42,624 nt of DNA from an uncultured Phycisphaerales bacterium (GTDB taxonomy: Bacteria; Planctomycetota; Phycisphaerae; WQYP01): the NCBI GenBank assembly GCA_903845195.1, contig CAIMWO010000093.1:1-42624 (forward strand). The letters run 5' to 3'. Positions within the stretch are counted from its first letter, which is position 1. Every line of letters starts with the position of its first letter. The position numbers and the translations under genes are program-made. The notes beneath the pieces are model-generated. The model was not told the DNA's origin. It saw nothing but the letters and a program-made list of their open reading frames with translations, and did no database searches. Below are positions 3,420-31,864 of the stretch, piece after piece.

Positions 3420-7218
<3,799 letters not shown>

Positions 7219-7270: not shown

Positions 7271-8548
7271 ATGAACGCCGATTCGCCAACCAATCCGCCG
7301 ACCGAAGGCGGGTGCCATGCCCAGTGGGGCAGGGGCCCCGCTGGGCATGGCACCCTCGCCATCCTCCTCGGCACACTCCTGCTCCTCGTCGGCCTGCGCA
7401 TCTGGCTCACCGCCCGCATCGCCTTCGCCCCCGGCCAGGAAACCGAATCCGCCACCCTCGTCTTCCTCCGCACCCTCGACGCCTACACCGGCTGGGCCGC
7501 CCTCCTCATCCTCTCTCTTGTCGGGTGCCATGCCCAGCGGGGCAGGGGCCCCGGTAGGCATGCGTCGCGCGTCCGCAATGCCCTCATTCCCCTCTCCCTC
7601 CTCGCCGGCATCCTCGCCCTCACCGCCTCGATCTTCCTCTCCGACGTCGTCACCCGCTCCCAACTTGAAATTGCCCTCGCCTTCTGGCTCGCCCTCTGCG
7701 GACTGTTCCTCATTATCCGCCAACTCGTCGCGCTCGCCGCCCACTTCTCCACCGGCCTGAACATCGAACAGCTCTGGCGACTCATCGCCGCCCAATGGAT
7801 ACTCGTCTGGCTCGCCGCCGAAATCTTCCTCCGCATCAAACTCCGCGGCGAAGGCGTCACCGCCAATGAATCCGCGCGCAACATCCTCTTCCTCCTCCCC
7901 ACCGCCTGCGTCCTGCCCAACATCCTCATGGCCCTCGGCATCCGCTGGTGGATCGCCCTCCGCCCTGCGACTCCCCCTCAACCCGCCCCCCACGTCCGCG
8001 CCTGGCTCCTCGCCATGCTCCTGCTCAACCTCGGCGCCGTACTCCTCATGATCCCCCTGCCCTGGCTCGGCATCCCCGGCGCCGCCCTCATGATCGCCGC
8101 CACCCTCCTCTACCTCGCCGGCTTCCGCCGCCCCGGTCTCTGGACCACCCTCGCCTGGACCTCATTCATCCTCGCCCTCCTTCTCCTCGCCGGCCAGCGC
8201 CTCATGCAACTCCACGACACTCCCATTCGCAACGTCTACTCCGCCGCCTGGCGCTATCTCCTCACCGACGGCCTCCTCCTCACCTGGCTTCTCTCCCGCG
8301 GCCTCCACCACCTCCGCACCCACCTCGCCCCCAACCTCCAGATGCGCACCCTCACCCGCCTCATCGCCTTCCTTCTCATCCTCGGAATCCTCACCACCCT
8401 CCTCACACTCCTCGCCGCGATCTCCCACAGCGACGCCCTCCCCTATCTCCTCTACGGCACAATTCCAGAAGCCGCCGCCCTCCTCCTCGCCACCGCAGTA
8501 ACCCTCCGCACCACCCACCTCCTCCGCCACTCAAAAATTGAAAACTGA
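7271..8548 (+). CDS. Polytopic integral membrane protein of unknown function. The start is uncertain.
   Basis: A 425-aa ORF with many hydrophobic TM-like segments and consistent GC3 bias. Its 5' region contains two in-frame copies of the REP-like palindrome, encoded as GCHAQWGRGPAGHG and GCHAQRGRGPGRHA. There is no alternative in-frame ATG/GTG downstream of the repeats before residue ~215. Confidence 0.6.
   Translation: MNADSPTNPPTEGGCHAQWGRGPAGHGTLAILLGTLLLLVGLRIWLTARIAFAPGQETESATLVFLRTLDAYTGWAALLILSLVGCHAQRGRGPGRHASRVRNALIPLSLLAGILALTASIFLSDVVTRSQLEIALAFWLALCGLFLIIRQLVALAAHFSTGLNIEQLWRLIAAQWILVWLAAEIFLRIKLRGEGVTANESARNILFLLPTACVLPNILMALGIRWWIALRPATPPQPAPHVRAWLLAMLLLNLGAVLLMIPLPWLGIPGAALMIAATLLYLAGFRRPGLWTTLAWTSFILALLLLAGQRLMQLHDTPIRNVYSAAWRYLLTDGLLLTWLLSRGLHHLRTHLAPNLQMRTLTRLIAFLLILGILTTLLTLLAAISHSDALPYLLYGTIPEAAALLLATAVTLRTTHLLRHSKIEN
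7310..7355. repeat. REP-like palindromic element, copy A (gggtgccatgcccagtggggcaggggccccgctgggcatggcaccc).
   Basis: A near-perfect ~20-bp-stem inverted repeat seen directly. The same sequence recurs at 7523, 12672 and 14804. Confidence 0.85.
7523..7568. repeat. REP-like palindromic element, copy A' (degenerate right arm ...ccccggtaggcatgcgtcgc).
   Basis: The left arm matches the family consensus while the right arm is diverged. It shares the ggcatgcgtcgc tail with the partial copy at 15524. Confidence 0.75.
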
Positions 8549-8560
8549 AAACTGAAAATT
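8533..8560. repeat. A-rich heptad repeat (caaaaattgaaaactgaaaactgaaaatt) overlapping the stop codon of the membrane-protein gene.
   Basis: Tandem TGAAAAY units in an otherwise GC-rich genome. The gene's TGA stop (8546-8548) lies inside the repeat. Similar elements occur at 12155, 20681, 22899, 28423 and 28711. Confidence 0.8.
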
Positions 8561-8682
8561 ACCGGATCACCCAATCCTCATGCGGATTACGCTCAATACA
8601 CGCGCCGCCCCCCATTCATCGTTCATCGTTCTACATTCATCATTTACCTCCCGCCAGCGCGTAAATGAAGCGGAAACGCGCC

Positions 8683-9632: not shown

Positions 9633-9703
9633 CTCACAGAGGACTCAGAGAACACAGAGAAATTCAGTATCTTCGCCTCTGTGCTCTCTGTGTCCTCTGT
9701 GAG
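9633..9703. terminator. Long imperfect hairpin. A ~27-bp stem (ctcacagaggactcagagaacacagag / ctctgtgctctctgtgtcctctgtgag) encloses a 17-nt loop.
   Basis: Inverted repeat seen directly. It lies downstream of the NDH-2 gene (minus strand) and upstream of the epimerase start, acting as a terminator and/or regulatory hairpin. Confidence 0.55.
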
Positions 9704-9797: not shown

Positions 9798-11279
9798 TCA
9801 TCTTCCGCCTCTCTCCCCTTCGTTCCCTGATGCCTTGGTGTTGAATCCCCCCTCGTTCGCCCGCAGCTTCGCCGTCGGATGCTCCGTCCCAAACAGATCC
9901 AACTTCACAATGTCATTCCGAAACAGAATCGCCACCGTCCAATCCATGATCACGCGCAGCCGCCGTTCCCACCGCATCATCTGCATCACGTAATACGTCC
10001 GCCACACCCACCACGCCAGCAGCCCGTACACCTTCACGCCCAGCAGCTTTCCCACCCCGTCATAATGCCCCAGCGACGCCATCGTCCCCAGCGTTTCATA
10101 CCGAAACGCCTGCAACTCCGCATCGCGTCCGCCGCGCTCCACGACAGCCGCAATATTCTTCGCCAGCACCTTCGCCTCGCGCAGCGCGTGCTGCGCCAGC
10201 GGCGGATACGGCTTCCCCTGGGCATCCGGAATCACCGCGCAATCCCCCAGCGCCCACACCTCCGGCCGCGACTTCACCCGCATCGACCCCTCCACCATCG
10301 CCCGCCCATTCCGCGCCTTCTCCAGCGGCAACTCCCCCAGCAACGGATTCGCCCCCAACCCCGCCGCCAGCAAAATCGTCTCACTCTCAATCCCCGTCTC
10401 TTCCCCCGCTCCGTCATTTCGCGTTTCGCCTTTCATGTTTCGCGTTTCCACCACCACTTTCCCCGCCTCAATCCGCTTCACCGGCGTATTCGTCAGAATC
10501 GACACGCCCCGCTTCCACAAAACCTCCGCCGCATATTCCGCCATGTCCCGCTCCATCTCCGGCAGCACCTTGTCGCTCGCTTCCACCAGCACAAACCGCA
10601 ACCACTCCCGGCTGATCCGCGGATAGCTCCGCAACAAATTATCCGTAAACTCCGTCAGCTCGCCCATCAACTCCACGCCCACCAGCCCCGCACCAATCAC
10701 CACAAACGTCAGCAACTTCTTCCGCCGCTCCGGGTCCTCCTCCACATCCGCCTGCTCGAACAAATCGATGATCCGGTTCCGCAGAAAAATCGCATCCCGC
10801 AGTGTCTTGAATCCCAGCGCATGCTCGCTCCCCGGTATCAATTTCCGGTTCGTCACCCCGCCCAGCGCCAGCACCAGCTGGTCGTACTCCAATTCCCAAA
10901 TCCCCTCCCGCGGCCCATGTCGTGCCAAAATTTTCCGCCCCTCCAGATCGATCCGCTCCACCGTCGCCTCGACGAACCGCGCCTTCTTGAACAGCGGCCG
11001 GATCGGATTGACCGCGTGCCGCGGCTCCAGCACGCCGCTCCCCGCCTCAAACAGTAGGGGGGTCATCAAGAAATAATTCTCGCGCGATACCAACGTGATC
11101 TCCACCCCCGCATGCCTGCGGAAAATCCGGTCCAGATGATACGCCGTGTATATGCCTCCAAACCCGCCCCCCAGGATCAGCACCCGTTGCGCCTTCCGCG
11201 ACCGCTCCATTCGCGGCGCCCTGCGTTCCGCCTCAGCCCCAATGATCGAAGTCGTCTGAACCTCATTCCGAGCAGCCAT
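9798..11279 (-). CDS. ndh: Type II NADH dehydrogenase (NDH-2), a FAD/NAD-binding pyridine nucleotide-disulfide oxidoreductase. The true start is possibly the internal Met (MERSRKAQRVLILGGGFGG).
   Basis: N-terminal dinucleotide-binding motif RVLILGGGFGG, a second Rossmann VVIGAGLVGVE, and C-terminal amphipathic membrane-anchor helices. It carries an in-frame ETRNMKGETRNDG insert encoded by heptamer repeats at 10412-10448. Confidence 0.85.
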   Translation of the reverse strand: MAARNEVQTTSIIGAEAERRAPRMERSRKAQRVLILGGGFGGIYTAYHLDRIFRRHAGVEITLVSRENYFLMTPLLFEAGSGVLEPRHAVNPIRPLFKKARFVEATVERIDLEGRKILARHGPREGIWELEYDQLVLALGGVTNRKLIPGSEHALGFKTLRDAIFLRNRIIDLFEQADVEEDPERRKKLLTFVVIGAGLVGVELMGELTEFTDNLLRSYPRISREWLRFVLVEASDKVLPEMERDMAEYAAEVLWKRGVSILTNTPVKRIEAGKVVVETRNMKGETRNDGAGEETGIESETILLAAGLGANPLLGELPLEKARNGRAMVEGSMRVKSRPEVWALGDCAVIPDAQGKPYPPLAQHALREAKVLAKNIAAVVERGGRDAELQAFRYETLGTMASLGHYDGVGKLLGVKVYGLLAWWVWRTYYVMQMMRWERRLRVIMDWTVAILFRNDIVKLDLFGTEHPTAKLRANEGGFNTKASGNEGERGGR

Positions 11280-11986: not shown

Positions 11987-12154
11987 GATCGCGCGCGAGA
12001 AACCTCTACAACCGCGACCGTCAGGGAGCGCCAATCTCGCCGCCAACCATGTTGGATGGTTCGCCAGCTCTCAAGGCCCAAATTGCTTGAACCCTGAATA
12101 ATCGATAGGTCGCAATGCGCGCATAAAAAAAGCGCGAAGCATCACTTCCCGCCT

Positions 12155-12189
12155 TGAAAATTGATAATTGTAAATTGAAAATTGAAACT
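12155..12189. repeat. A-rich heptad repeat (ttgaaaattgataattgtaaattgaaaattgaaact) abutting the stop of atpC.
   Basis: Same family as the 8533 element. It sits in the convergent intergenic region between slyD and atpC. Confidence 0.8.
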
Positions 12190-14999: not shown

Positions 15000-15443
15000 T
15001 CAGCCCTTCCGCTCTTTCGCCGCCGCATTGAGCAACTTTTGTACCGCCCTCGCCTGCGGGTCTTTTCGGCGGGCAGCACGGTCGATCGCCGTCAGTTGCA
15101 TCCATCCCGCGATCGTCGGATCAGCCCCCGCGCGGATCAGCCGCTCCGCCATCGCCGGCGAGCACTTGCCAGCGCAGCTGCCCAGCGGCGTATTGCCAAT
15201 GACGCGCTCATCATGCGCATTGACGTTGGCTCCCGCCTCGATCAGTCGGTCGACGACTGCCGAGTGCTCACCATCGGCCGCGTAATGCAGCGTCGTCTTG
15301 CCCAGCTCATCGAAGCGGTTGACCGGATAACCCCGCGTCAGAAGGTCTTCCACCTTCGCCAGATCCCCGTGTTGCGCAGCAGAGTGCAACTGCTCCCGCT
15401 GAAACTGTGCCGCCAAGTCATCTTTCATCGTTAACTCGCTCAT
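15000..15443 (-). CDS. Ankyrin-repeat protein.
   Basis: Three or four ANK repeats (TTLHYAADGEHSAVVDRLIEAGANVNAHDE..., GNTPLGSCAGKCSPAMAERLIRAGADPT). Confidence 0.75.
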   Translation of the reverse strand: MSELTMKDDLAAQFQREQLHSAAQHGDLAKVEDLLTRGYPVNRFDELGKTTLHYAADGEHSAVVDRLIEAGANVNAHDERVIGNTPLGSCAGKCSPAMAERLIRAGADPTIAGWMQLTAIDRAARRKDPQARAVQKLLNAAAKERKG

Positions 15444-15701: not shown

Positions 15702-16046
15702 ATGGGAAATGAACAGGCCGCACCTGAGACGAAAGGTGTCACGGTGGAGCTGCTGGCAGCGCTTGACCTTGGCCCTGAAATCGAGGGCATGGCAGGGCGC
15801 CAATTTCGCATGCGGTTGGTGACCATCAAACCTGGTGGCGTTTTCGGCCCGGTTCACGACCATAAAGACCGGCCGGGCATGGTCTACATACTGCAAGGAA
15901 CGATCACTGATCATCGAAATGGAGTGGCCAAGGACTATGGGCCGGGAGTGGGCTGGCCCGAGGATAGGAACACCACGCACTGGCTTGAGAACAGAGGAAC
16001 AACGCCGGCGGTGGAGATCTCGGTCGATATTGTCAGAGCAACCTGA
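15702..16046 (+). CDS. Cupin-domain protein.
   Basis: Contains cupin motifs such as PVHDHKDRPGMVYILQG. A strong AGGAGA RBS lies upstream. Confidence 0.75.
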   Translation: MGNEQAAPETKGVTVELLAALDLGPEIEGMAGRQFRMRLVTIKPGGVFGPVHDHKDRPGMVYILQGTITDHRNGVAKDYGPGVGWPEDRNTTHWLENRGTTPAVEISVDIVRAT

Positions 16047-16104: not shown

Positions 16105-17472
16105 TCACACCTCCACCGTCTGCCCGCGCTCCGCAATTGTCACACTCCCAAACCCCGCCGCACCCAGCGCCTTGCGATGGGCCTCCGCCGCCTCGATTTC
16201 CCCATGCACCAGGTACACCTTCGCACCCTTCAGCGGCCGCGTGTAATTCACCAGCTCCTCCCCGTCCGCATGGGCGCTCAATCCGTCGATCTGCTCCACA
16301 TGACACCGCAGCGGAATCATGTCCCCCAAAATCGGCACCTCCGGCAAGCGATCATGGATCTTCCGCCCCAGCGTTCCCGCCCCCTGGTATCCCGCCAGCA
16401 GCACCGTGCACCGCGCATCCCGCAAATGATGCTTCAAATGATGCAATATCCGTCCGCCTTCACACATCCCGCTGCTCGCAATAATCACCAGCGGCCCCGA
16501 CATCTGATTCAGCTTCATGCTCTCCTGCACGCTCGCCGTGTACGTGAGAAACTCCTCATCGAACGGCTCAAACATTGCCCGCGTCTCATCGTCCCACAGA
16601 TTTTCATACGTCCGGAACACCTCCGTCAGCCGCGTCGCCAGCGGAGAATCCACAAACACCCGCAACTTCGCCGGTATCTTTCCCTGACTTCGCAACTCGT
16701 TAATCTGCTGCACCATCGTCTGCGTCCGTCCCAGCGCAAACGCCGGAATCATCAGGATCCCACCCCGCGCCGCCGTCTCGCCGATGATCCGCGCCATCGC
16801 CTTGGGCACATCCGCCACCGGCCCATGCTTCCTCCCGCCATACGTGCATTCCGATATCACCGCGTTCGCCTGCGTAAATGGAATCGGATCCTCCAGAATC
16901 GGCGCATCCGGCCGCCCCACGTCGCCCGTGAACACCAGCGACCGCCCGCTGGCCGTCTCCACGATCCGTATCGCCGCGCTCCCCAGCACGTGCCCCGCCT
17001 CGTGCAATTCCACCGTGAACCCGCCAAAATCCCGCGGCTGCGCATACTCCAGCGGCGCAAACAATCCGATCGTCTTCTGCGCATCCTCCTGCGTGTACAG
17101 CGGCTCGATCTTCCCCTGCCAGCTCCTCTGCGTCTTCTGATTCAAATACGCCGCATCTTCTTCCTGGATCTTCGCCGAATCCATCAGCATCAATGCCGAC
17201 AATGCCGCCGTCGCCTTCGTGCAGTAAATCTTCCCCTTAAACCCCTGCTTCACCAGGTTTGGCAAATTCCCCACATGATCCATGTGCCCATGCGACAGCA
17301 GCACCATCTCCACCGTCTTCGGATCGAAATCAAATTTCGTATTGATCTGCCGCGCCAGCGCCCGCGGTCCCTGGAACAACCCGCAATCCAACACGATCCG
17401 CCGCCCCCCAATCTGCACCTCATGCAAACTCCCCGTCACCGTCCGGCACGCCCCGTGAAATACAATCTTCAT
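16105..17472 (-). CDS. MBL-fold metallo-hydrolase of the beta-CASP family (RNA-processing RNase J/CPSF-like).
   Basis: HxHxDH motif (LLSHGHMDHVGN), a beta-CASP domain and a C-terminal RMMBL region. The protein is 455 aa. Confidence 0.85.
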   Translation of the reverse strand: MKIVFHGACRTVTGSLHEVQIGGRRIVLDCGLFQGPRALARQINTKFDFDPKTVEMVLLSHGHMDHVGNLPNLVKQGFKGKIYCTKATAALSALMLMDSAKIQEEDAAYLNQKTQRSWQGKIEPLYTQEDAQKTIGLFAPLEYAQPRDFGGFTVELHEAGHVLGSAAIRIVETASGRSLVFTGDVGRPDAPILEDPIPFTQANAVISECTYGGRKHGPVADVPKAMARIIGETAARGGILMIPAFALGRTQTMVQQINELRSQGKIPAKLRVFVDSPLATRLTEVFRTYENLWDDETRAMFEPFDEEFLTYTASVQESMKLNQMSGPLVIIASSGMCEGGRILHHLKHHLRDARCTVLLAGYQGAGTLGRKIHDRLPEVPILGDMIPLRCHVEQIDGLSAHADGEELVNYTRPLKGAKVYLVHGEIEAAEAHRKALGAAGFGSVTIAERGQTVEV

Positions 17473-17495
17473 GCTCGCCTCTGAAAAATGGAAAG

Positions 17496-17574
17496 TAGAA
17501 AATGGAGAATAGAAAATAGAAAAACGTGGAAGCCCTCGCGGCTCCTTTTTCTATTTTCTATTTTTCATTTTCTA
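17496..17574. terminator. Long AT-rich hairpin. A 29-bp imperfect stem (tagaaaatggagaatagaaaatagaaaaa / tttttctattttctatttttcattttcta) encloses a 21-nt GC-rich loop, followed on the minus-strand transcript by a U-rich tract.
   Basis: Inverted repeat seen directly. It lies in the 85-nt spacer between the dipeptidase stop (which falls inside the stem) and the MBL RNase start. Confidence 0.6.
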
Positions 17575-18580
17575 TTCCCAGTACACGCGCCCAATTCCCC
17601 CACGCAAACCGCTCGATCTCCTCGTCGCTCCAGCCCGCGCCTGCCAGCGCATCGCCGAGCGCATCGACCTTCTCCGCCGAATCCAATCCCTCCGGCAGCA
17701 GCGTCGCATCAAATCCTCCATCCATATCCGATCCTAGCGCCAAAAAGTCCCGCCGCCCCGCAACATCCTCAAAGTACGCGATGTGCCGCAGCACATCCGC
17801 AATCGTCGCCCGCTGGCCGGTGGGGGGGCTGACTAAAAATTTCTGAAACAGCACCACCCCGATCACCCCGCCCTGCGCCACCAGCGCCCGTATCTGCGCA
17901 TCCGACAAATGCCGCTCCGGATGTTGTTTTCCCGGCAGCAGCGCACGCGGGTTCGAATGCGTCGCCACCTTCAAATTTTTTCCCCCCTCCATCAATTCCC
18001 AAAACGCCTGCTCGCTCAGATGCGACACATCATGGATCACGCCGCGCCGATCCAACTCCGCCACCAACTGCCATCCCGCCGGCGTAATCCCTCCGCCGCT
18101 CTGATCCCCGCCCGCCCACTGCGAACCCTCCGCCCACGTCAAACTCACCACCCGCACCCCCGCCTCATAAAATTCCCGAAAATCCTCCACCCCCCGCAAA
18201 CAAGCCGCCCCCTCAATCATGAGGACAATGTGTGGCAAATCCTGCCCGCCGTTTCGTGTTTCGCGTTTCGTGTTTCGCGTTTCCCGATACCACTCCAACT
18301 GCCTCACCCCCGCCTCATGCGCCTCTTCCCGCGTGTCATAACTCCACGGCCCATCGCAAACCTCCACCCCGCGCCGCTTCGCCTCCTCCTCCCGCACCCG
18401 CTTCTGCACAAAGATCGTCCCCAGCGCCCCGCGCACCCCGCCCGCCGCCATCGCCGGGAACGTCACCGCCGCCGGCAATTGATCGCCCCCGCATTCCCCC
18501 AGCCCCTTGGTCATATCCCGCCCGCGCGCAGCCAGATACGCCAAATCCAGATGCCCATCAAACCATCGCCGCCGCGCCAT
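17558..18580 (-). CDS. Membrane dipeptidase (peptidase family M19).
   Basis: Contains the N-terminal FDGHLDL motif plus the conserved His/Glu ligand layout of M19. It carries an in-frame ETRNTKRETRNGG insert encoded by heptamer repeats at 18251-18284. Confidence 0.85.
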   Translation of the reverse strand: MARRRWFDGHLDLAYLAARGRDMTKGLGECGGDQLPAAVTFPAMAAGGVRGALGTIFVQKRVREEEAKRRGVEVCDGPWSYDTREEAHEAGVRQLEWYRETRNTKRETRNGGQDLPHIVLMIEGAACLRGVEDFREFYEAGVRVVSLTWAEGSQWAGGDQSGGGITPAGWQLVAELDRRGVIHDVSHLSEQAFWELMEGGKNLKVATHSNPRALLPGKQHPERHLSDAQIRALVAQGGVIGVVLFQKFLVSPPTGQRATIADVLRHIAYFEDVAGRRDFLALGSDMDGGFDATLLPEGLDSAEKVDALGDALAGAGWSDEEIERFAWGNWARVLGIENEK

Positions 18581-18604
18581 CCCTGCCTCGCCTGCAATCT
18601 TCGC

Positions 18605-19171
18605 TTACTTCTTCCCATACGTAATCTGCACGATCGTCGTATTGTCGTCGTTGCCCGTCGCCGTGATCGTCACCGTACGTCCTTCCTTCGTGCAGATGAG
18701 TGTCGTCGTCGCTCCGATGTTCACCACGTTGTCTTCCTTCCATCCCTGCCCCGGCAACTCCTTCTGATAATACTGAATCACGTCCGCCCCAACCTTCCCC
18801 GATGCCGTGAACATCGCCATGCCCGCCTCCCGCGCCTTGTCGCTGTAGCTCATCGTCGGACTCATCCCGCTGAAGATCGGCACATCCGACGGAAAATTGT
18901 CCGGCAGCTTCGCGACCGCCCCCTCTGTCACCCCGCCCATGCTCATCCCCTGACGCCGCGCGTCTGCCTTGGCCTGCTCTTCCATTTTCTCCATGCGCAT
19001 CGCCACCGACTTGGCCCCAGACCGCGCAAACCAGTAACAGGTCGTCAGACCCCCGCAGCAGCACACCATCAGCAATACTGCAACCCCCACGAGGATCCAC
19101 ACCAAGTTCGAATTCTTCTTCCCCGGCGGCGTCGGCGTACCACCCGTTCCCGGCATATTCTGCTGCGTCAT
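18605..19171 (-). CDS. Hypothetical membrane-anchored protein: N-terminal TM helix followed by a soluble domain.
   Basis: A TM segment LVWILVGVAVLLMVCCCGGL is followed by a ~130-aa domain. It is co-directional with its flanking genes. Confidence 0.55.
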   Translation of the reverse strand: MTQQNMPGTGGTPTPPGKKNSNLVWILVGVAVLLMVCCCGGLTTCYWFARSGAKSVAMRMEKMEEQAKADARRQGMSMGGVTEGAVAKLPDNFPSDVPIFSGMSPTMSYSDKAREAGMAMFTASGKVGADVIQYYQKELPGQGWKEDNVVNIGATTTLICTKEGRTVTITATGNDDNTTIVQITYGKK

Positions 19172-19222
19172 GTCCCACGCTCCTTAAAAGCGGACCACGA
19201 ACTACTGACAACTGACCAATGC

Positions 19223-19720
19223 CTACTTAATCAACGTCATATGCCCAATCAGCGGCAAACCCTTCTTCTGACCGTTGGCCGCTTGAATGATGCCGTAAAT
19301 CGTGGCCGCCAGCGCTCCTATCAACAACGCCGGCTGCACCAGCCGGAAAATGCACGCGAAGAAATAAAAGACGATCGGGATATTGGAAGAGAAGAAATGA
19401 CTCACCATCCAGTACAAGCCTTCCAGTACCGCCACGCCGATCACCGCGATAAACCAGATAATGAATACCATCAATCCCTGGTTCGCATGATACCGGGCAA
19501 ACTTCGAGTTCGGCGCCGCCAAGAGCGGGATCAAAAACAAAATGTATCCCAAAATCGCCATCGCCTTGTTGGCTTCTACATCCGGATCCACCGGCTCCTT
19601 CGGCGCCTCCGCCTCCTCATCCGCTTTGATAATCACCGGCACCGGCGGCACAAAGTCCGGATCGCCCGGCAACGGCTTCTTCGCATCCGGTTTCAGATCG
19701 TAACCCCCGTCCTCGCTCAT
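19223..19720 (-). CDS. DUF4870-family small membrane protein.
   Basis: The core ILGYILFLIPLLA...KFARYHANQGLMVF is characteristic of DUF4870. It has an acidic/proline-rich N-terminus. Confidence 0.6.
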   Translation of the reverse strand: MSEDGGYDLKPDAKKPLPGDPDFVPPVPVIIKADEEAEAPKEPVDPDVEANKAMAILGYILFLIPLLAAPNSKFARYHANQGLMVFIIWFIAVIGVAVLEGLYWMVSHFFSSNIPIVFYFFACIFRLVQPALLIGALAATIYGIIQAANGQKKGLPLIGHMTLIK

Positions 19721-19822
19721 ACTTCACCCTTTCAAAAACATCACCTTCATGACACTATCCGTATAATCCCCATTTGGCAATTCCTTGTTCACCCATAACC
19801 CATATCCCTTCAGGAGCTCCCC

Positions 19823-20695
19823 ATGAATCCCCCACCCCTCTCCCCCCCCCTCTCCCTCGGCCTCTGCTCCTGGTCCACCCGCCAGATCGAAGAGCCCGCA
19901 CTCCGCGCCGCCTTCCAACCCCTCGGCATCAACATCCTCCACCTCGCCCTCAGCCCCCTGGCCGAACTCGACCCCTCCGAACAAACCCACGCCCTCGCCC
20001 AGTTCCGCGCCTCGCCCCTCCAAATCTCCGCCGGCATGATCAGCTTCCCCGGTGAAGATTACCGCACCCTCGCCACCATCCGCGCCACCGGCGGCCTCGT
20101 CCCCGATGACCTCTTCCCCCAACGCCACGCCCTCCTCACCGCCTGCGCCCACCTCGCCCATCAACTCAACCTCCGCCTCGTCTCCACCCACGTCGGCTTC
20201 ATCCCCGCCCAGTCCGACCGCCCCAACTTCGACCGCCTCCGCGACCGCCTCGCATCCATCGCCGACCAGTTCGCCGCTCTCAACCTCACCCTCCTCTTCG
20301 AAACCGGACAGGAAACCGCCGATACCCTCGCCGACTTCCTCACCGTCCTCAACCGCCCTAACGTCGGCGTAAACTTCGACCCCGCCAACATGATCCTCTA
20401 CGGCAAAGGCGACCCCGTCGCCGCCATCCGCACCCTCGCCCCCTGGATCCAGCACGTCCACGCCAAAGACGCCCGCCTCGTCTCACCTCCCCCCAACGAT
20501 CCCACTGCCTGGCGCGCCCACGAAGCTCCACTCGGCCAAGGCGACGCCCACCTCCCCCAAGTCCTCACCGCCCTCAAACAAATCCACTACCCCGGCCCCC
20601 TCATCATCGAACGCGAAGCCACCTCCTCCCGCACCCAGGAAATCCTCGCCGACCTCACCTACCTCCGCTCCCTCATCCCAAAAAATGAAAATTGA
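19823..20695 (+). CDS. Sugar phosphate isomerase/epimerase (xylose isomerase-like TIM barrel).
   Basis: TIM-barrel AP-endonuclease-2 / xylose-isomerase-like motifs (LLFETGQE, VNFDPANM, HAKD). An AGGAG RBS lies upstream. Confidence 0.8.
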   Translation: MNPPPLSPPLSLGLCSWSTRQIEEPALRAAFQPLGINILHLALSPLAELDPSEQTHALAQFRASPLQISAGMISFPGEDYRTLATIRATGGLVPDDLFPQRHALLTACAHLAHQLNLRLVSTHVGFIPAQSDRPNFDRLRDRLASIADQFAALNLTLLFETGQETADTLADFLTVLNRPNVGVNFDPANMILYGKGDPVAAIRTLAPWIQHVHAKDARLVSPPPNDPTAWRAHEAPLGQGDAHLPQVLTALKQIHYPGPLIIEREATSSRTQEILADLTYLRSLIPKNEN

Positions 20696-20718
20696 AAATT
20701 GATAATTGAAAATTATTC
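20681..20718. repeat. A-rich heptad repeat (aaaaatgaaaattgaaaattgataattgaaaatt) containing the stop codon of the isomerase gene.
   Basis: Same TGAAAAY family. The TGA at 20693-20695 is embedded in it. Confidence 0.8.
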
Positions 20719-20827
20719 TCTCTCCCCCTTCCAGCGCTCGATTTCACGCAACTATTTCTGATGCCTTGCACCACGCCCCAACTCTTCACATCATTCACCC
20801 AGTCCCTTCCTCGCTACAGGTGCCCAC

Positions 20828-22879
20828 ATGCCCCAAATCTCCTTCGACTCCCGCGCCATCCTCATCGACCAACAGCGTATCCTCCTCCTCTCCGGTTCGA
20901 TCCATTACCCCCGCTCCACTCCCGAAATGTGGCCCCACCTCTTCCAAAAACTTCGCGCCGCCGGCCTCAACACCGTCGAAACCTACGCCTTCTGGAACCT
21001 GCACGAAAAACAGCAGGGCCACATCGATTTCTCCGGCCGCCTCGACCTCGCCCACTTCTGCCGCCTCGCCCAGCAGCACGGCCTGCACGTCTTCCTCCGT
21101 ATCGGCCCCTACATCTGCGCCGAAACCAACTTCGGCGGATTCCCCCCCTGGCTCCGCGACGTCCCCAACATCCAGATGCGCACCGACAATCAACCCTTCA
21201 AAGCCGCTATGACCGCCTGGGTCACACGCCTCTGCGATTACCTCCGCCCGCTCTTCGCCCCGAGCGGCGGTCCCATCATCCTCGCCGGCATCGAAAACGA
21301 ATATGGCAATATCTCCCAACACTACGGCGCCGCCGGCATACGCTACCTCGAATACTGCCGCGACCTGGCCAACTCCCTCCACCTCGGCATCCCCCTCACC
21401 ATGTGCAACGGCGATGTCCCCGGCGCCCTCACCACCCACAACGCCCTCTGGGGTCACGGCAAACTCGATGAACACTATGCCAAACACCCCGACCAACCCG
21501 TCCTCTGGACCGAAAACTGGCCCGGCTGGTACGACACCTACGGTTACGCCCGCCATCTCCGCTCCACCACCGATATGACCTACCTCCTCGCCCGCTTCTT
21601 CGCCGGCGGCGGCACCGGCGCCAACTACTACATGTTCCACGGCGGCACCAACTTCGACCGCGTATCCATGTACCTCCAAACCGCTACCTACGATTTCGAC
21701 GCACCGCTCGACGAGTACGGCCTCGAAACCACCAAGTACCACGCCCTCGCCAAACTCCACCACCTCCTGGCCGAGCACGCCCCCGAACTGCTCGCCCAAA
21801 ATCCCCCTGCCCCCCTCACCCTCGGCGAAAAACAACTCGCCTTCACCTACGCCCCCTCCTCGCCCAACCCCCTCACCTTCCTCTGCAATGATGAGGAGTC
21901 CGCCCCCGCCCATATCACCTTCGCCGGCGAATCCTACGACCTCGCGCCCTACTCCGTCCAGATCCTCTCCGGTTCCCGCCTCCTGCTCGACACCGCGCAA
22001 CTAGACCCCGCCCATATCATCACCCGCCACATGGAACCCCTCGCCACGCTTCCCCCCTTCGAAGCCTCACCCGAACCGCTCCCCGCTCACCGTTCCGCCG
22101 GCCTCGCCGCGCCCGAACCCCTCGAACAACTCCGCCTCACCCAAGACCGCTCCGACTACTGCTGGTACTCCTCCACCTTCACTTCCACCGCGCCCACGAC
22201 GACTCTCACCCTCGATGGCGTCGCCGATTTTGTATCGGTCTACGTCGACGGCCAGCTTCATGCCACCACCGCCACGCCCCTCGTCGAAAACCGCACCCTC
22301 CAGGACCACAAAGATTTCACCCAAACCTTTACGCTCCGCTTGCCCCCCGGCCATCACCGCCTCGACCTCCTCTGCTGCGCCCTGGGCCTGATCAAAGGTG
22401 ACTGGATGCTCGGCTTCAAAAACATGGCCGAAGAACGCAAAGGCCTCTTCGGCCGCGCCCTCATCGATGACCAGCCGCTCTCCAACTGGACCATGCACCC
22501 CATGCTCCAGGGCGAACTGACGCCCCCCTCATCCTGGACGCACTTCGATCCCCACAACCCGTCACCATGGTCCCCCCTCTGGCTCCGCACCACCTTCCCC
22601 CGCCCCGACACCCCCCATCCCCTGGCGCTCGATCTCCTCGGCCAAACCAAAGGACTCATCTTCATCAACGGCCGCTGCCTCTCCCGCTACTGGCTCCTCA
22701 CCGCCACCATCGCCAATCCCATCTCACCGTTTCCCCCCATGACCCCCGCTGGCCTGGGCGAACCCACCCAACGCTACTACCACCTCCCCCAATCCTTCCT
22801 CGCCCCCCACAACACCCTCACCCTCTTCTCCGAACTCCCCACCCCCGCCCCCACCATCCAACTCTGCCGCCGCATCTAA
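20828..22879 (+). CDS. Beta-galactosidase, glycoside hydrolase family 35.
   Basis: GH35 N-terminal catalytic domain (SGSIHYPRSTPEMW, TVETYAFWNLHE, GPYICAETNFGGFP, GIENEYG). The protein is 683 aa. Confidence 0.9.
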   Translation: MPQISFDSRAILIDQQRILLLSGSIHYPRSTPEMWPHLFQKLRAAGLNTVETYAFWNLHEKQQGHIDFSGRLDLAHFCRLAQQHGLHVFLRIGPYICAETNFGGFPPWLRDVPNIQMRTDNQPFKAAMTAWVTRLCDYLRPLFAPSGGPIILAGIENEYGNISQHYGAAGIRYLEYCRDLANSLHLGIPLTMCNGDVPGALTTHNALWGHGKLDEHYAKHPDQPVLWTENWPGWYDTYGYARHLRSTTDMTYLLARFFAGGGTGANYYMFHGGTNFDRVSMYLQTATYDFDAPLDEYGLETTKYHALAKLHHLLAEHAPELLAQNPPAPLTLGEKQLAFTYAPSSPNPLTFLCNDEESAPAHITFAGESYDLAPYSVQILSGSRLLLDTAQLDPAHIITRHMEPLATLPPFEASPEPLPAHRSAGLAAPEPLEQLRLTQDRSDYCWYSSTFTSTAPTTTLTLDGVADFVSVYVDGQLHATTATPLVENRTLQDHKDFTQTFTLRLPPGHHRLDLLCCALGLIKGDWMLGFKNMAEERKGLFGRALIDDQPLSNWTMHPMLQGELTPPSSWTHFDPHNPSPWSPLWLRTTFPRPDTPHPLALDLLGQTKGLIFINGRCLSRYWLLTATIANPISPFPPMTPAGLGEPTQRYYHLPQSFLAPHNTLTLFSELPTPAPTIQLCRRI

Positions 22880-22898
22880 AACATTCGCCGCCCAACCC

Positions 22899-22977
22899 TT
22901 GAAAATTGAAAACTGAAAATTGGAACCCGCCCCTCCACCCTCCTTCTGAATTCCGAACTCTGAATTCTGAATTCGCC
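22899..22977. repeat. A-rich heptad repeat (ttgaaaattgaaaactgaaaattgg) followed by a ctgaattc x3 repeat, in a convergent intergenic region.
   Basis: The TGAAAAY family element sits 20 nt after the GH35 stop. Tandem GAATTC-containing octamers lie at 22944-22977. Confidence 0.75.
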
Positions 22978-22989
22978 ATCCCCTTCCCT

Positions 22990-23475
22990 TCACCCGATCT
23001 TATCAAACGTCACCTGTGTCCTCTTCTCATCGGCGAACCGCGCGTAGTAAACCCGCACGTTCAGTCCAAACTGCGAGAGCAACCGCGTGAAGATCCCCGG
23101 CAGATTCCCAAGATCATGAAGCATCTGTTCTTCGTGCTCGCGCCCCCCGGTGACACGGTCGGTAAGCGTATGATAAAAGCCACAGTCTTCATGATTGATC
23201 AAGACGATCTGCCGGATCTCGCCGAAGCGTTCGAGCAGCGATTCGATGCGCCCCACTAGAAACGCAAAATCCTTGGGCAGGCGTTCCGGATGCGAAAAAC
23301 CCGCCGCCCCGCCCCGAATCACCACCGGCACGTATTCGCCGTCCTGCAGGTGCAGCTCGTCCTCAATAAACTTACGAAACGCAATCTGAAACCGCGGATC
23401 GCTGCAATGCACGACCAGCGTCGTCGGTTTCGGGCTGGCCACAACCGCGTATGTCTTTGTTCCGGTCTCCGTCAT
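22990..23475 (-). CDS. Hypothetical protein with a beta-carbonic-anhydrase-like metal-ligand motif pair (HCSDPR ... HEDCG). Start set at the internal Met (MTETGTKTY) with an AGGAG RBS.
   Basis: The CxDxR and HxxC motifs are spaced ~60 aa apart, as in beta-CA zinc sites. The rest is not confidently assignable. It lies 62 nt downstream of flotillin on the same strand. Confidence 0.55.
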   Translation of the reverse strand: MTETGTKTYAVVASPKPTTLVVHCSDPRFQIAFRKFIEDELHLQDGEYVPVVIRGGAAGFSHPERLPKDFAFLVGRIESLLERFGEIRQIVLINHEDCGFYHTLTDRVTGGREHEEQMLHDLGNLPGIFTRLLSQFGLNVRVYYARFADEKRTQVTFDKIG

Positions 23476-23570
23476 GCGGGAACTCCTGCGGGACGATTCG
23501 TTCAACACCGCGGCACACGGAACGCTGCACGAAACTCAGCATCGTCGCGCCGCCGCGCTCATGCATCAAC

Positions 23571-25376
23571 TTACGCCTTCGCCGGCGTTGTCGGCACCGG
23601 CTTCGCGGGTGTCGGAACGATCGGGCTCAGCCCAGTGCTCGCCGCCGGCGGAGTCGTGATCGATCCGAGAATCTCATCAAGCCCCTTGGCATCGATACCC
23701 AGTTTCTCCAGGGCCGGGCCCGGGTTGATGCCGCGCGCCTTAAGTTGTGTGAAGAAATTGAGCACCAGGTTGGGAATGGTATTGCCGAAGCGCTCCAGGC
23801 CGTCGGCCTTGCCGTTTCCGTTGCTCCCGCCGCCCATATCGATGATGCGCACCTCGTCGATGCCCTGCATCGCGTGCCCGAGCGGTTCGAAAATCGCCGC
23901 CGCCACTTTCGCCGCGGCATCCCCGCCCCTGTCGAACAACGCCGGCAGACGATCCAGCACCAGAATCAGACGTGCGTCCGTGCTCATCTGACCCAAGGCT
24001 TCGGCCAGCTTCAGCGTGCCCTCGGCCTCGGCCAGCAGCACCTTGCCCTTCATCGCCGCCTGACCTTCCGCTTGCGCCATCAGCAACTGCTTCGTCCCTT
24101 CAGCCTCGGCAACCAGCAACGCTTTCTTCTTCGCCGCATCGCCTTCCGCCTGGGCCACCAGAACCGCCTTGGTCTTCGACGCTTCACCTTCGCCCTGCGC
24201 TATCTGCGCCGATCGTGCACCGTCGGCTTCCAGAACCGCACGCTGCTTGGTGGCCTCGGCCTGCAGAATCGCCACGCTCTTGGCCGCCTCCGCGTTGATG
24301 ACCGACTGCTGCTGCGCCGCTTGCGCTTCGATGATGGCCTTCTCCTTGGCCGCCTCGGCCGGGCGAATCACCGTGGCCACAAGTTCCTGCTCCTTCCGCA
24401 TCGCTTCCTTCTGCGCCACCAGCACCTGCGCCTCACGCTGCGCCGCGTCACGCTCCGCCTCCTTCACCAGCAGGATCTGCTCCTGCAACGCCGTCGCAAT
24501 CGCCAGCGCCTTGTCCGCCTTGGCCAACTCGCTGTCGGCCACCACCTTGAACTGCGCCTTCTTCACGTCCCGATCTCGTTCCGCCTCGGCAACCGCCACG
24601 GCGTTCTGCGCCTGCACCACCGAAGCCTCACGCGCCGCATCGCTGACCTTCTTCTTCGTCGCCGAATCCGCCTCGGCCACCTTGATGTTCGCGTCACGCA
24701 CCGCCTCGGCCACCGCCTGCTTGCCCAATGCGTCGATATACCCGTACTGGTCCGTCACTTCCTGGATCACCAGCGTGATCACCTGGATCCCCAGCCGATG
24801 CAACTCTTCCGCCGATTCGTCCACCACCTTGCGGTTGAACGTGTCCCGCTCGCGCAGAATTTCCTGAATGCTCAGCTTCCCGATGATCGAACGCAGGTGC
24901 CCCTGCAGGATGTTCCGGACGAACTCGAGAATCTGCTGATCCGTCTTGCCCAGGAACGCCATCGCGGCGTTGTGCACGTCTTCCGGCGCCGTCGAAATCT
25001 TGATGCTCGCAACGCCGCGCACGTTGATCTGCACGTTGTCCTTGTTCGGTATCTTCGTCTCGTCGATCTCGGACTGCTGGGCCGCCGTCGACATCACCTG
25101 CAGGTGCTCGACGATCGGGTACAGCAGCGCGCCGCCGCCGGCCACCACGCGAAAACCCCGGTACGCCGTCTTGCCGTCAGCGTCCGTGTACTTGTACTTG
25201 CGGCCGTAGAAAATACCCACCGCGTTGGGCGGAATCTTCTTGTAACGGGTGGCCATCGTGTAAACCACCACCACGAACGCCACCGCGATGATGACGATGA
25301 CGAATGGAATCAGCAGCCCCCCCAATGACTTGCTGAAATTCGCGGATTCCTGTGCCAGGATCTGCAGACTGACCAT
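23571..25376 (-). CDS. Flotillin-family SPFH/band-7 protein (YqiK/FloT-like).
   Basis: N-terminal TM helix, SPFH domain and a long Ala/Glu-rich coiled-coil with flotillin-type repeats (AEAEG...). The protein is 601 aa. Confidence 0.85.
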   Translation of the reverse strand: MVSLQILAQESANFSKSLGGLLIPFVIVIIAVAFVVVVYTMATRYKKIPPNAVGIFYGRKYKYTDADGKTAYRGFRVVAGGGALLYPIVEHLQVMSTAAQQSEIDETKIPNKDNVQINVRGVASIKISTAPEDVHNAAMAFLGKTDQQILEFVRNILQGHLRSIIGKLSIQEILRERDTFNRKVVDESAEELHRLGIQVITLVIQEVTDQYGYIDALGKQAVAEAVRDANIKVAEADSATKKKVSDAAREASVVQAQNAVAVAEAERDRDVKKAQFKVVADSELAKADKALAIATALQEQILLVKEAERDAAQREAQVLVAQKEAMRKEQELVATVIRPAEAAKEKAIIEAQAAQQQSVINAEAAKSVAILQAEATKQRAVLEADGARSAQIAQGEGEASKTKAVLVAQAEGDAAKKKALLVAEAEGTKQLLMAQAEGQAAMKGKVLLAEAEGTLKLAEALGQMSTDARLILVLDRLPALFDRGGDAAAKVAAAIFEPLGHAMQGIDEVRIIDMGGGSNGNGKADGLERFGNTIPNLVLNFFTQLKARGINPGPALEKLGIDAKGLDEILGSITTPPAASTGLSPIVPTPAKPVPTTPAKA

Positions 25377-25405
25377 GATGATCTCCTTTGAGACTCGACT
25401 TCGTT

Positions 25406-25933
25406 TCAGGCCTTCTCGACCACAAGTTCACTTCCAACCGTGCTCACCACGCGGACCGTCGCCCCCCGGGGAAGAGACTGCCCGTTGGCGGATTTCGCGG
25501 TGAAATTCATGTACTGGCCCGCAGCGCTTACCCCGACTTCGCCGAGACTGCTGCTCTCAATCGAAACGGTCACCGTGCCCGACGCGCCCACCAGCGAATT
25601 GGTCGGCACCAGCGACGAAGACTGCTGCTTGCTGATCAAACTCAAAAACCCGTACATCACCAGTCCCAGCACCACGCCCGCAATCACGCCGTAAAGCGAG
25701 GAGACCGGGTAACTGCATTCGTAATGCCGCGCAATGGCACCCACCCCGCCGAAACCCATCGCAAACGTGCAGATGACTTTCGTCGAAAATATGCTCACCG
25801 TGTGCTCGGTGACCGCATCGCCATGATCGATCCCGTGATCCACGGCGCCGCCGGCATCATGGTCGTGACCGAACATGAACGCGCCCGCCAGAACGACAAA
25901 CGCAGCCACCGCGATCGAGAGGAAAATCAGCAT
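25406..25933 (-). CDS. NfeD-like membrane protein (YqiJ-like partner of flotillin).
   Basis: N-terminal TM helices plus a C-terminal OB-fold-like beta domain (GTVTVSIESSSLGEVGVSAAGQYMNFTAKSANGQSLPRGATVRVVS). It sits immediately upstream of the flotillin gene, the classic NfeD-SPFH operon. Confidence 0.7.
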   Translation of the reverse strand: MLIFLSIAVAAFVVLAGAFMFGHDHDAGGAVDHGIDHGDAVTEHTVSIFSTKVICTFAMGFGGVGAIARHYECSYPVSSLYGVIAGVVLGLVMYGFLSLISKQQSSSLVPTNSLVGASGTVTVSIESSSLGEVGVSAAGQYMNFTAKSANGQSLPRGATVRVVSTVGSELVVEKA

Positions 25934-26239
25934 GTCACTCTCCTTTTACGGAACGACCGCCGGAAAAAGCAAAGCGCGGCATTATGTGCGGGAATCGCAA
26001 ACCTTTTGCGGAGAATTGAAAGGCGGACATCATTTCACGCTCCAGGATGCTCATTGCCGCCGCCGGCTCTTATGCAGGAACGCCATCAGCTTCCCGCTCG
26101 TCAGAGAAGAAGAATGCCTTCCTTCCCGACGCAATATAACACCGATAGCCACAGCAGCAAGGGCGGCATTTCCCTCGCGCACAACAACCGACTACCCCCG
26201 CCGCTTGACCGAGCTAAGTGCCTCGGTTAATCCCCTGCT

Positions 26240-27145
26240 ATGCAACTGCAAAGCCCCCTCCCATCGCTCTCACGCTACACCTTCGGCACCGGCCGCATCC
26301 GCGCCACCGCTGATTCCTTTGCGGCCGATGTAAAATTGGTGCGGGGCGTCATGGAAACCGGCGTGGCCATCCATACCAGTTCAGACTATGGACATGGCGG
26401 CCATGATGTGCAACCGTTCGGCGGCGGCCAAACGCTCAAAGTCCTTCACGCCGCCTTCGCCGAGGCGCCCACGCAAATTCCTAAAATCGTCGTCAAGCTC
26501 TACTGCGCCACGGTCGACAACGCCCGCGGCCACCTCGAACTGATCCTCCGCGGCTTGGGAGTCGATCGCATTGACGTCGCTCAACTCTGCACCTGGGCCG
26601 ATTTCGCCGATGACTTTCGCCAACAAGGGCCGCGCTGGCAGGTGTTCAAGGAGTTCAAGGAAAAGCGACTCATTGGCAACTACGTCGCCGAGATCTTTTC
26701 GCCCTGGTCGCAAAATGCCCTGCCCGTCATCCAGGAAGAGTTGGTCGATGCCGCCATTTTCTACTACAACCTCGTCGATCGGCAGGTCAACAACGAAGTG
26801 TGGGATCTGATCGAAGCAAAGAAAACCAAAGTGTTCGCACTGCGGACGCTCGGCGGAATCTGTCCGGATCTGGACCGCGTCGAAGTGGTCGCGACCAACG
26901 CGGGCGCGGACCCGATGCGCTCCATGCTCGCCGCGCTCCAGGGGCTCTACAAGCAGTCGGGCTGCCGAAACTGGGTGGAGTTCAGCATGCGGTTCGCTCT
27001 GAGCATCCCCAACGTTCTCACCACCATCGGCGCCACCAATAACCTCCACCACGTCCACGCCTTCCTCGCGGCAGAGCGGGCCTTCCAACCGCTGCCGCAG
27101 GATGTGATGCAGCAAATCAAAACCCTGCATCGGCAGTGGTTCTAG
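26240..27145 (+). CDS. Aldo/keto reductase-like protein (divergent).
   Basis: Weak AKR signatures (SRYTFGTG near the N-terminus; LGVDRIDVAQLCTW resembles the AKR 'LDRIDLYQIH' region). Assignment is tentative. Confidence 0.45.
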   Translation: MQLQSPLPSLSRYTFGTGRIRATADSFAADVKLVRGVMETGVAIHTSSDYGHGGHDVQPFGGGQTLKVLHAAFAEAPTQIPKIVVKLYCATVDNARGHLELILRGLGVDRIDVAQLCTWADFADDFRQQGPRWQVFKEFKEKRLIGNYVAEIFSPWSQNALPVIQEELVDAAIFYYNLVDRQVNNEVWDLIEAKKTKVFALRTLGGICPDLDRVEVVATNAGADPMRSMLAALQGLYKQSGCRNWVEFSMRFALSIPNVLTTIGATNNLHHVHAFLAAERAFQPLPQDVMQQIKTLHRQWF

Positions 27146-27161
27146 GCCAAGGCTTATCTTT

Positions 27162-27974: not shown

Positions 27975-27992
27975 GCGCGGTGCGCCGGGTGC

Positions 27993-28027
27993 CATGGTCT
28001 TGGCACTATCTCGGTGCCAAGACCATG
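27993..28027. terminator. Perfect 14-bp stem hairpin (catggtcttggcac-tatctcg-gtgccaagaccatg) 19 nt after the methyltransferase stop.
   Basis: Inverted repeat seen directly. No U-tract follows, so it is rho-independent-like at best. Confidence 0.5.
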
Positions 28028-28289
28028 CCGATGGCGCCTCGTAATCGGATCCCGCGTCCATTTCACAATTTCGACCAGACATTGGCCTGGCCACGGAGGG
28101 TCACCGAAACCCGAAACGCACCGTGAACCCCGTATCGCATAACTCTTAACTCGTCATACCTGCGTGTCCCCCGTGAAGTGGTTTCACCCCGTTGCGATTG
28201 CCTAAACTCTCACACATCCATGCGCAACCATATCATCCCCCATCCTCCCCAAAAGAAAAATAATCTCATCGCTAACTCCCGCCCCTCCC

Positions 28290-31827: not shown

Positions 31828-31831
31828 CTTA

Positions 31832-31864
31832 AAACCCTTGGGAATCCAGCGTTCCCAAGGGTTT
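31832..31864. terminator. Perfect 13-bp hairpin (aaacccttgggaa-tccagcg-ttcccaagggttt) immediately 3' of tRNA-Ser, followed by a T-rich tract.
   Basis: Inverted repeat seen directly. The tail ttacgtgttttct follows it. Confidence 0.65.

Follow-up and report, generated by a model that had tools for sequence, protein, structure and literature searches.

Heptanucleotide arrays within the NDH-2 and M19 dipeptidase genes of an uncultured Phycisphaerales bacterium as probable slippage microsatellites

Why do two unrelated enzyme genes carry the same 7-nt repeat inside their reading frames? The question is raised by a 42,624-nt stretch of DNA from an uncultured Phycisphaerales bacterium (contig CAIMWO010000093.1 of assembly GCA_903845195.1), here called the window. 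In this window, the genes for a type II NADH dehydrogenase (NDH-2) and for an M19 membrane-type dipeptidase each contain an array of GAAACGC-like heptamers. A sequence-only reading of the window had noticed both arrays and proposed either a short mobile element or a slippage-generated microsatellite, tolerated in surface loops and possibly variable in length. The follow-up analysis described here indicates that both segments are very likely slipped-strand heptanucleotide microsatellites tolerated in loops and not inserted elements.

The two coding arrays and their loops

Both sites were read directly, which confirmed the in-frame repeat in each gene, and Pfam agrees with the two gene assignments (Table 1). 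The translations given earlier, ETRNMKGETRNDG and ETRNTKRETRNGG, were exact. In the coding sense, the NDH-2 array reads GAAACGC GAAACAT GAAAGGC GAAACGC GAAATGA CGG and the dipeptidase array reads GAAACGC GAAACAC GAAACGC GAAACAC GAAACGG CGG. A string quoted by the sequence-only reading as common to both sites is not literally present at both, the NDH-2 array being degenerate. Tandem Repeats Finder (TRF) assigned both arrays a period of 7, counting 4.6 and 4.9 copies. At period 14 the dipeptidase array has 100% matches; the NDH-2 array has 76% matches. Both consist of head-to-tail copies of a unit within the 1-11 nt that defines a simple sequence repeat (SSR). The pattern GAAACGCGAAAC, allowing at most one mismatch, has 8 matches in the window where 0.42 would be expected, a count not attained in any of 100 shuffles.

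The arrays lie in parts of the two proteins that vary in length. The NDH-2 protein matches the solved structures 4NWZ and 5NA1, and in the alignment of its orthologues the array segment falls in a stretch varying from 0 to ~60 residues. The Caldalkalibacillus NDH-2 structure 4NWZ has an 11-residue gap exactly at the array position. In the AlphaFold model of NDH-2, residues 278-294 form a coil between strands 274-277 and 295-298. The predicted local distance difference test score (pLDDT) has a mean of 85 for this model, with a mean of 61 in the segment and values above 90 on both sides. In the dipeptidase model (mean pLDDT 95.5), the segment comprises the end of helix 84-108 and the coil preceding strand 117-123; its pLDDT is 71-82, compared to 97-98 in the flanks. 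The M19 family alignment is likewise hypervariable at the array position, from 0 to ~60 residues. By these models and alignments, both coding arrays are placed in tolerant, hypervariable surface loops, as had been supposed from the sequence.

The likeness between the two arrays could also be the result of mobility. If transposition-like events or retro-insertion had placed one GAAACGC cassette of ~35 nt in both genes, the arrays would be related by descent; they are mutually 33/38 identical and both terminate in GAAAYGRCGG. However, their flanks match at only 10 of 30 and 4 of 31 positions, which is the random level. The nucleotide-level identity claimed for the insert therefore covers the repeat itself and nothing around it, and even there it amounts to close similarity. 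When the flanks were compared, no shared flank, terminal inverted repeat or target-site duplication was found at either coding array, and so mobility of the arrays is not supported. Neither array has the conserved ends or terminal inverted repeats plus target-site duplication of a miniature inverted-repeat transposable element. The two sites are also just 2 of ~14 heptamer arrays in the window, with differing units. A mobile or templated insertion is thus highly improbable, and this reading is already largely refuted.

Unit differences among relatives

Close relatives differ at both sites by whole units. In a lineage with 95-97% nucleotide identity to the window, represented by two contigs (L001 and L002), the NDH-2 site reads GAAACGC GAAAC|GACGG. 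Compared to the window, this is a 21-nt, 3-unit in-frame indel (10416-10436 missing), leaving two units in place of five. At the dipeptidase array, an 11,967-nt contig (L011) was aligned to window positions 16254-28234 and showed 1 mismatch; the only indel between the two is the loss of 14 nt (2 units) from the array. This deletion shifts the frame and splits the gene into open reading frames (ORFs) of 117 and 220 amino acids. No other indel was found in ~90 kb of near-identical contigs from at least 8 samples. Judging from this one assembled contig, the dipeptidase array would therefore mutate more readily than its surroundings. Whole-unit copy-number polymorphism between related genomes was thus found at both coding arrays. 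The earlier suggestions of a length-variable site and of a slippage-generated microsatellite both agree with these whole-unit differences and with the period-7 calls. Since length differences are whole heptamers within the array, they also speak against insertion of a cassette.

An assembly or sequencing artefact could produce repeats or length differences of this kind. Heptamer arrays are where several same-population contigs break off (L212 and L218, at window positions 17548-17555), and a related contig, which carries the dipeptidase copies L009 and L219, belongs to a nanopore assembly in which frameshift errors are evident. Against this, identical copies of both array sequences were found in 7-12 independent contigs, which come from ENA, JGI and Logan assemblies and differ in sample and assembler, and the 21-nt NDH-2 difference is present in two independent contigs. 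The arrays (~35 nt) are also far shorter than the 141-mer that, as we read them, the k141 contig names imply, which makes collapse in assembly unlikely. An artefact is accordingly the least probable of the explanations considered, and we regard it as extremely unlikely.

The dipeptidase loop was then compared among orthologues, where it holds several different heptamers (Table 1), an observation that argues further against the insertion of one cassette. Of the 120 homologues listed, 9 have a 7-residue periodicity in this loop. Orthologues at 54-59% identity (L008 and L219) have both ETRN-type peptides and, in their DNA, GAAACRC arrays in the same loop. Taken together, the ETRN peptides and the other heptamers in distant orthologues mean that the array site is old or recurrent and not a recent insertion. 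The view of both segments as insertions, as opposed to ancestral sequence, is therefore partly contradicted for the dipeptidase, and the NDH-2 array is restricted to the close lineage in the NDH-2 alignment.

The two paralogous copies on one contig are informative on how units change. L219 has (GAAACGC)4-5 in place of the (GAAACTT)5 of L009, yet the downstream (ACGGATC)n is common to both. This difference looks like unit turnover in place, judging from the sequences of the two copies, and does not fit the arrival of a mobile cassette. L219 (protein P0222) has an ORF that starts inside the GAAACGC array. It was considered as a second natural frameshift and dropped because its contig is nanopore-derived and has other split genes; it was used for array presence only. 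Both copies are on a 739,646-nt contig (ERZ26871208), within a segmental duplication that carries the dipeptidase, a sigma-54 activator, an NAD-binding dehydrogenase, AF_1845 and chorismate synthase. L219 has several frame changes, which point either to decay of this paralogue or to nanopore indel errors.

Selection on the peptide was also weighed. On this explanation, the charged motif ETRNxKxETRN is kept for protein function, as a flexible charged loop or an interaction site, and the DNA period is secondary. ETRN-type peptides do recur at the dipeptidase loop in divergent orthologues (P0123, P0132, P0138 and P0222), and all loop arrays are A/G-rich in the coding sense and encode hydrophilic residues, where their complements would give VFRVSCF-like peptides. 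However, the period lies in the DNA. It is 7 nt and not codon-based, all three reading frames are used, and the three frames yield different peptides (ETRNTKH, RNAKRET and TKHETRN). Units agree at all seven positions whatever the codon position, which protein-level selection alone would not bring about. The closest NDH-2 relative is without 7 of the residues, most orthologues are without the whole segment, and pLDDT is low at both sites. The hydrophilic bias is accounted for by purifying selection against hydrophobic loop inserts. A selected peptide motif is thus very improbable, and the loop peptides are presumably selectively neutral.

Another possible explanation is that the arrays are adaptive contingency loci, in which gain or loss of units reversibly switches the dipeptidase, and possibly NDH-2, by phase variation. 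The 2-unit deletion of L011 is a natural frameshift in an otherwise near-identical background, and the dipeptidase array is a perfect 14-nt repeat. With a 7-nt unit inside ORFs, unit changes do alter the reading frame, as in the L011 allele. In Haemophilus influenzae, phase variation has been proposed for heptanucleotide SSRs that lie within genes and give frameshifts, namely (AATTTTG)14 in hmw1a and (AACAACC)n in a TonB-dependent receptor gene, and there, too, a unit change in a 7-nt SSR inside an ORF shifts the frame of the gene (PMC2651432). The H. influenzae SSRs, in contrast, have 8-14 or more perfect units and belong to a host-adapted pathogen, in which they occupy virulence or surface genes (PMC2651432). 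Here the arrays have ~5 partly degenerate units, the NDH-2 array being the degenerate one, and are in housekeeping enzymes of a free-living aquatic bacterium, not in surface or restriction-modification functions, and any switching is putative. The shifted allele was found in only 1 of 8 contigs. Tuned phase-variable SSRs concentrate near the N-terminus (PMC3315296). The NDH-2 and dipeptidase arrays have neither this placement nor the typical gene class, since they lie mid-protein in loops (residues 278-290 of 493 and 100-112 of 340). Most arrays in the genome are also intergenic, and the coding ones therefore look like spill-over from a general mutational bias. We consider phase variation unlikely.

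In the slippage explanation, which we favor, unit number would change through slipped-strand mispairing in replication or repair. Loop-outs of 7 nt are probably too large for MutS-type mismatch repair, and in E. coli this repair probably misses 7-base loop-outs. Selection would then sort the outcomes. Changes of three units (21 nt) would keep the frame and could be fixed, as in NDH-2, and changes of one or two units would shift the frame, so that the gene is inactivated or split, as in the one dipeptidase variant. The two genes would thus offer a natural example of a non-triplet microsatellite surviving in enzymes, in a hypervariable loop where 3-unit changes are kept and 1- or 2-unit changes break the gene.

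Period-7 arrays across the window and the choice of unit

The two coding arrays belong to a larger set. TRF found 14 arrays of period 7 and 2 of period 14 in the window, compared to 1.3 in Markov shuffles, and no non-triplet period other than 7 was comparably enriched in the window against these shuffles. Both the pattern matches and the period-7 count thus exceed what composition predicts, as expected of SSRs. At a stricter score, 13 arrays of period 7 or 14 were found in the 42.6-kb window, compared to 23 in 1.31 Mb from 80 Phycisphaerae loci of GTDB genomes. A few of these loci (L075, L012 and L067) are likewise array-rich, with other units. The window's own species was not recovered in the scan of GTDB genomes, where no full-length dipeptidase match exceeded 61% (L026), and L028, with a partial dipeptidase match of 71%, has zero arrays in 8.9 kb. 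Heptamer enrichment is specific to some lineages and not to the whole class. By the homologues of both proteins, the window belongs to a Phycisphaerae (Planctomycetota) lineage, and this lineage is unusually rich in period-7 tandem arrays.

Most arrays in the window use units other than those of the two genes, for example GAAAATT, GAAAATA and GAATTCA, and sit at, or within 40 nt of, stop codons. Outside the two genes, the units are AAAACTG, TTGAAAA/AAAATTG/TGAAAAT, AAAATAG with its complement TTTTCTA, TTCTGAA, CATTCAT and CCCACGG. Between 8.5 and 23 kb, the annotated intergenic regions hold eight arrays, and every one of them either overlaps a stop codon or is at most 40 nt downstream of one, by a hand count from coordinates with the stop-codon distances taken from gene calls on same-species contigs. 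Three genes, the dipeptidase gene among them, draw their final codons and stop codon from an array.

This background bears on why both genes have the same unit. Three heptamers span 21 nt, and arrays of at least three units are therefore read in all three frames. Consequently, a unit can be part of an ORF only if its coding sense is free of stop codons. The A-rich units of gene 3' ends (GAAAATT, GAAAACT and GAAAATA) create TGA or TAG in the coding sense; GAAACGC and GAAACAC create no stop. Stop-free units would be the only ones to persist inside genes, and only where the protein tolerates added residues, and GAAACRC would be the stop-free relative of the local GAAA-type units. It is plausible that the stop-free and hydrophilic filters, combined with the local preference for GAAA-type units, led to convergence on GAAACRC in both genes.

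Several points weigh against the slippage explanation. The stop-codon filter is weak, with 69% of all heptamers and 41 of the 64 GAAANNN units being stop-free. It therefore falls short of explaining the common unit when taken alone, and was rejected as the full explanation. The slippage mechanism is one that we infer from the pattern of sequence differences. The preference for period 7 and the clustering at gene 3' ends are left unaccounted for by slippage. The frameshift allele is known from the single assembled contig L011. The NDH-2 array is unchanged in 4 same-population contigs and, with ~5 imperfect units, should be fairly stable.

The repeat (GAAACRC)3 is not specific to this lineage. 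It was found in at least 120 metagenome contigs with GC contents of 0.28-0.71. Such a spread could be expected of a mobile cassette, but the wide GC range and the abundance of other heptamer arrays in the same contigs (149 of period 7, a density of 2.5 per 10 kb) argue against one. Searches of 120 of these contigs with tblastn (NDH-2 and the dipeptidase) and blastn (the window) gave no match. Their arrays are in unrelated genes and organisms and are therefore uninformative on polymorphism at the two loci. Period 7 leads the TRF histogram of these contigs (L092-L211), with 260 arrays compared to at most 39 for any other period, and AAACCCG and AAACCCT are the commonest other units. AAACCCT has the sequence of the plant-type telomere repeat, and some of the contigs may be eukaryotic.

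Known heptamer systems were compared with the window. In many bacteria, heptamers are the most over-represented class of long SSRs, and polymerase slippage or interaction has been proposed as the cause (PMC4679880 and PMC4692102). The prokaryotic heptanucleotide long SSRs (Mrazek et al. 2007, as relayed in these two papers) are similarly short tandem 7-nt arrays that are over-represented, mostly intergenic and variable between close relatives. Unlike them, the arrays here have A-rich GAAA-type units, cluster within 40 nt of stop codons and include two inside enzyme genes. TAACTGA heptamers form direct repeats in marine Beggiatoaceae, cyanobacteria and Bacteroidetes (MacGregor 2015, PMC4679880). 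In one orientation this unit has stops in all three frames, so its arrays overlap ORF ends; in the opposite orientation, ORFs tolerate it chiefly where it encodes the periphery of the protein. There, one unit dominates and is located mostly just upstream of start codons, whereas the window has many units, mostly at gene 3' ends, with intragenic copies that are mid-protein. The window also resembles cyanobacterial STRR heptamers and the Xanthomonas/Nostoc GGGAATC / GGGGAYT repeats in having lineage-specific intergenic arrays, some as inverted pairs between convergent genes (PMC4692102). Those repeats show extensive length and sequence variation between close relatives, and their units are G-rich and can form G-quadruplexes (PMC4692102); here the units are A-rich, the taxon is another and some arrays are coding. 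With GAAACRC, GAAAATT, GAAAATA, GAATTCA and others in Phycisphaerae, the window falls outside the specific units and taxonomic range of the STRR and TAACTGA families. The cyanobacterial STRR units are CCCCAGT, TTGGTCA and CAACAGT.

A literature search found no description of heptamer repeats in Planctomycetota or Phycisphaerae in the papers that it covered. The present data extend heptamer-repeat enrichment, a still unexplained bacterial phenomenon, to an uncultured freshwater Phycisphaerae lineage. A broader idea, which we hold to be improbable, is that the arrays are the signature of a lineage-specific peculiarity of replication or repair, possibly the same one that lies behind the extreme strand asymmetry described below (third-codon-position GC skew of ~0.5-0.87). 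The arrays might then have been co-opted as 3'-end elements, providing stops in three frames and terminator arms, and as intragenic frameshift switches, and the M19 loop would be a hot spot that has persisted through much of the class. If the arrays were regulated switches or 3'-end signals, they would represent a new layer of gene control in Planctomycetota, which the present evidence does not require.

Other arrays and features of the window

The coordinates of the arrays and their host genes, and the repeats in the dipeptidase loop of orthologues, are listed in Table 1.

Table 1. Heptamer arrays, host genes and orthologous loop repeats; positions are those of the window.
Feature	Position (nt)	Strand	Description
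NDH-2 gene (type II NADH dehydrogenase)	9798-11279	minus	493 amino acids; Pfam Pyr_redox_2 + NDH2_C
NDH-2 heptamer array	10412-10448	minus	~5 degenerate GAAACGC-like units; encodes ETRNMKGETRNDG, residues 278-290
M19 membrane-type dipeptidase gene	17558-18580	minus	340 amino acids; Pfam Peptidase_M19, E 3e-58
Dipeptidase heptamer array	18250-18284	minus	(GAAACGC GAAACAC) x2.4; encodes ETRNTKRETRNGG, residues 100-112
Dipeptidase loop, L007 (72% amino acid identity to window protein)			(GAATTCA)~4
Dipeptidase loop, L008			(AAACAYA)6 then (GAAACRC)6; right junction GAAACGGCGG identical to that of the window
Dipeptidase loop, L009			(GCGGAAT)4, (GAAACTT)5, (ACGGATC)5
Dipeptidase loop, L010			(AAAACTC)4
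(AAAACTG)n	8534-8558	plus	overlaps stop codon of 425-amino-acid gene 7271-8548
(CATTCAT)n	8613-8644	plus	38 nt 3' of aldose epimerase stop codon
(TTGAAAA)n	12154-12187	plus	1 nt 3' of atpC stop codon
(AAAATAG)n	17485-17523	plus	inverted partner of array 17547-17576; the pair flanks a GC-rich hairpin
(TTTTCTA)n	17547-17576	plus	TAGAAAA in dipeptidase sense; supplies dipeptidase C-terminal codons and stop codon
(AAAATTG)n	20681-20714	plus	overlaps stop codon of AP_endonuc_2 gene 19823-20695
(TTGAAAA)n	22899-22922	plus	19 nt 3' of GH35 gene stop codon
(TTCTGAA)n	22944-22974	plus	15 nt 3' of stop codon of gene 22990-23475
Composite unit, copy 1	28363-28452	plus	(CCACGGN)3, C-rich spacer, (TGAAAAT)4; long intergenic region 5' of beta-helix protein gene
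Composite unit, copy 2	28662-28740	plus	(CCCACGG)5, C-rich spacer, (TGAAAAT)4

Intergenic arrays turn over quickly as well, as in the spacer between atpC and the FKBP gene, which has (TTGAAAA)5 in the window and a classic hairpin terminator, without an array, in L001. The unit of the array at 22944-22974 is also present in the dipeptidase loop of the orthologue L007 and in L012. An Rfam scan of the whole window returned one tRNA only (31741-31827) and no known RNA family at any array.

On the minus-strand RNA, positions 17470-17590 have inverted (UAGAAAA)n and (CUAUUUU)n arrays around a GC-rich hairpin, between the dipeptidase gene and a beta-CASP/RMMBL ribonuclease-type gene. The predicted fold of this inverted pair has an energy of -46.3 kcal/mol (z -7.1). 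It looks terminator-like on both strands, with the arrays replacing the usual A- and U-tracts. In the intergenic region 27975-28810, the composite copies are ~300 nt apart and follow the order (CCACGGN)3-5, C-rich spacer, (TGAAAAT)4 and then (CCGTCGTG)3. Repeated GCGCAAAAAACCTGCGCATCTC...CTGAAAA and TCTGCGCAGGTGCGCAA motifs are found between the copies, and the outer arrays of the region pair weakly on the plus strand (z -2.4 and -2.6). Two period-9 arrays, (CACAGAGAA)3 and (CCTCTGTGC)3, are located at 9635-9701 between the NDH-2 and aldose epimerase genes. They are roughly inverted, and the source annotation calls a 50-amino-acid ORF across them.

Same-population contigs of different samples (L212, L215, L216 and L218) end at 17548-17555 or 19822-19834, inside a heptamer array or the C-rich repeat 19828-19856. 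Heptamer arrays and the C-rich repeat seem to break short-read assemblies, or these sites may be heterogeneous in the population. A C-terminal K-to-I difference in P0121 was rejected as a unit change; it is a single mismatch 7 nt from the L212 contig end inside an array and was treated as an end artefact. In annotation and metagenome binning, such arrays account for genes that are split, for breaks in contigs and for unusual low-complexity peptides (ETRNTKRETRN, for example). In another contig, L217 (positions 4268-4460), the match to the window is lost at ~15135, inside the ankyrin-repeat gene 15000-15443, which may be due to a structural variant.

The window shows an extreme strand asymmetry. 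Up to ~32 kb, most 2-kb bins have a GC skew of -0.2 to -0.49, independent of gene orientation, and the skew is near 0 at 4-6 and 26-28 kb. At third codon positions of the genes between 291 and 27974, the coding-strand skew is mostly +0.3 to +0.8 in minus-strand genes and -0.7 to -0.87 in most plus-strand genes. At these largely synonymous sites, C is therefore much commoner than G on the plus strand. The exceptions are the RNase_T/BRCT gene (3420-4694), the Cupin gene (15702-16046), NfeD, the aldo-keto reductase gene (26240-27145) and the methyltransferase gene (27162-27974), which may be recent arrivals. L028, the closest GTDB relative, also has a skew of -0.27, and a literature search found no report of extreme GC skew for Phycisphaerae. 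A strand bias of the arrays relative to the C-rich strand was considered and set aside, as the numbers by hand count were too few (8 A-rich compared to 3 T-rich on the plus strand).

From ~32 kb onward (to 42624), GC content drops to 0.52-0.59 and the GC skew vanishes. The tRNA gene at 31741-31827 is followed by a phage-type integrase gene (31969-33333, minus strand) and a gene for an HTH_17 protein (33330-33752). The region 31741-42624 is probably an integrated mobile element or a prophage remnant at the tRNA.

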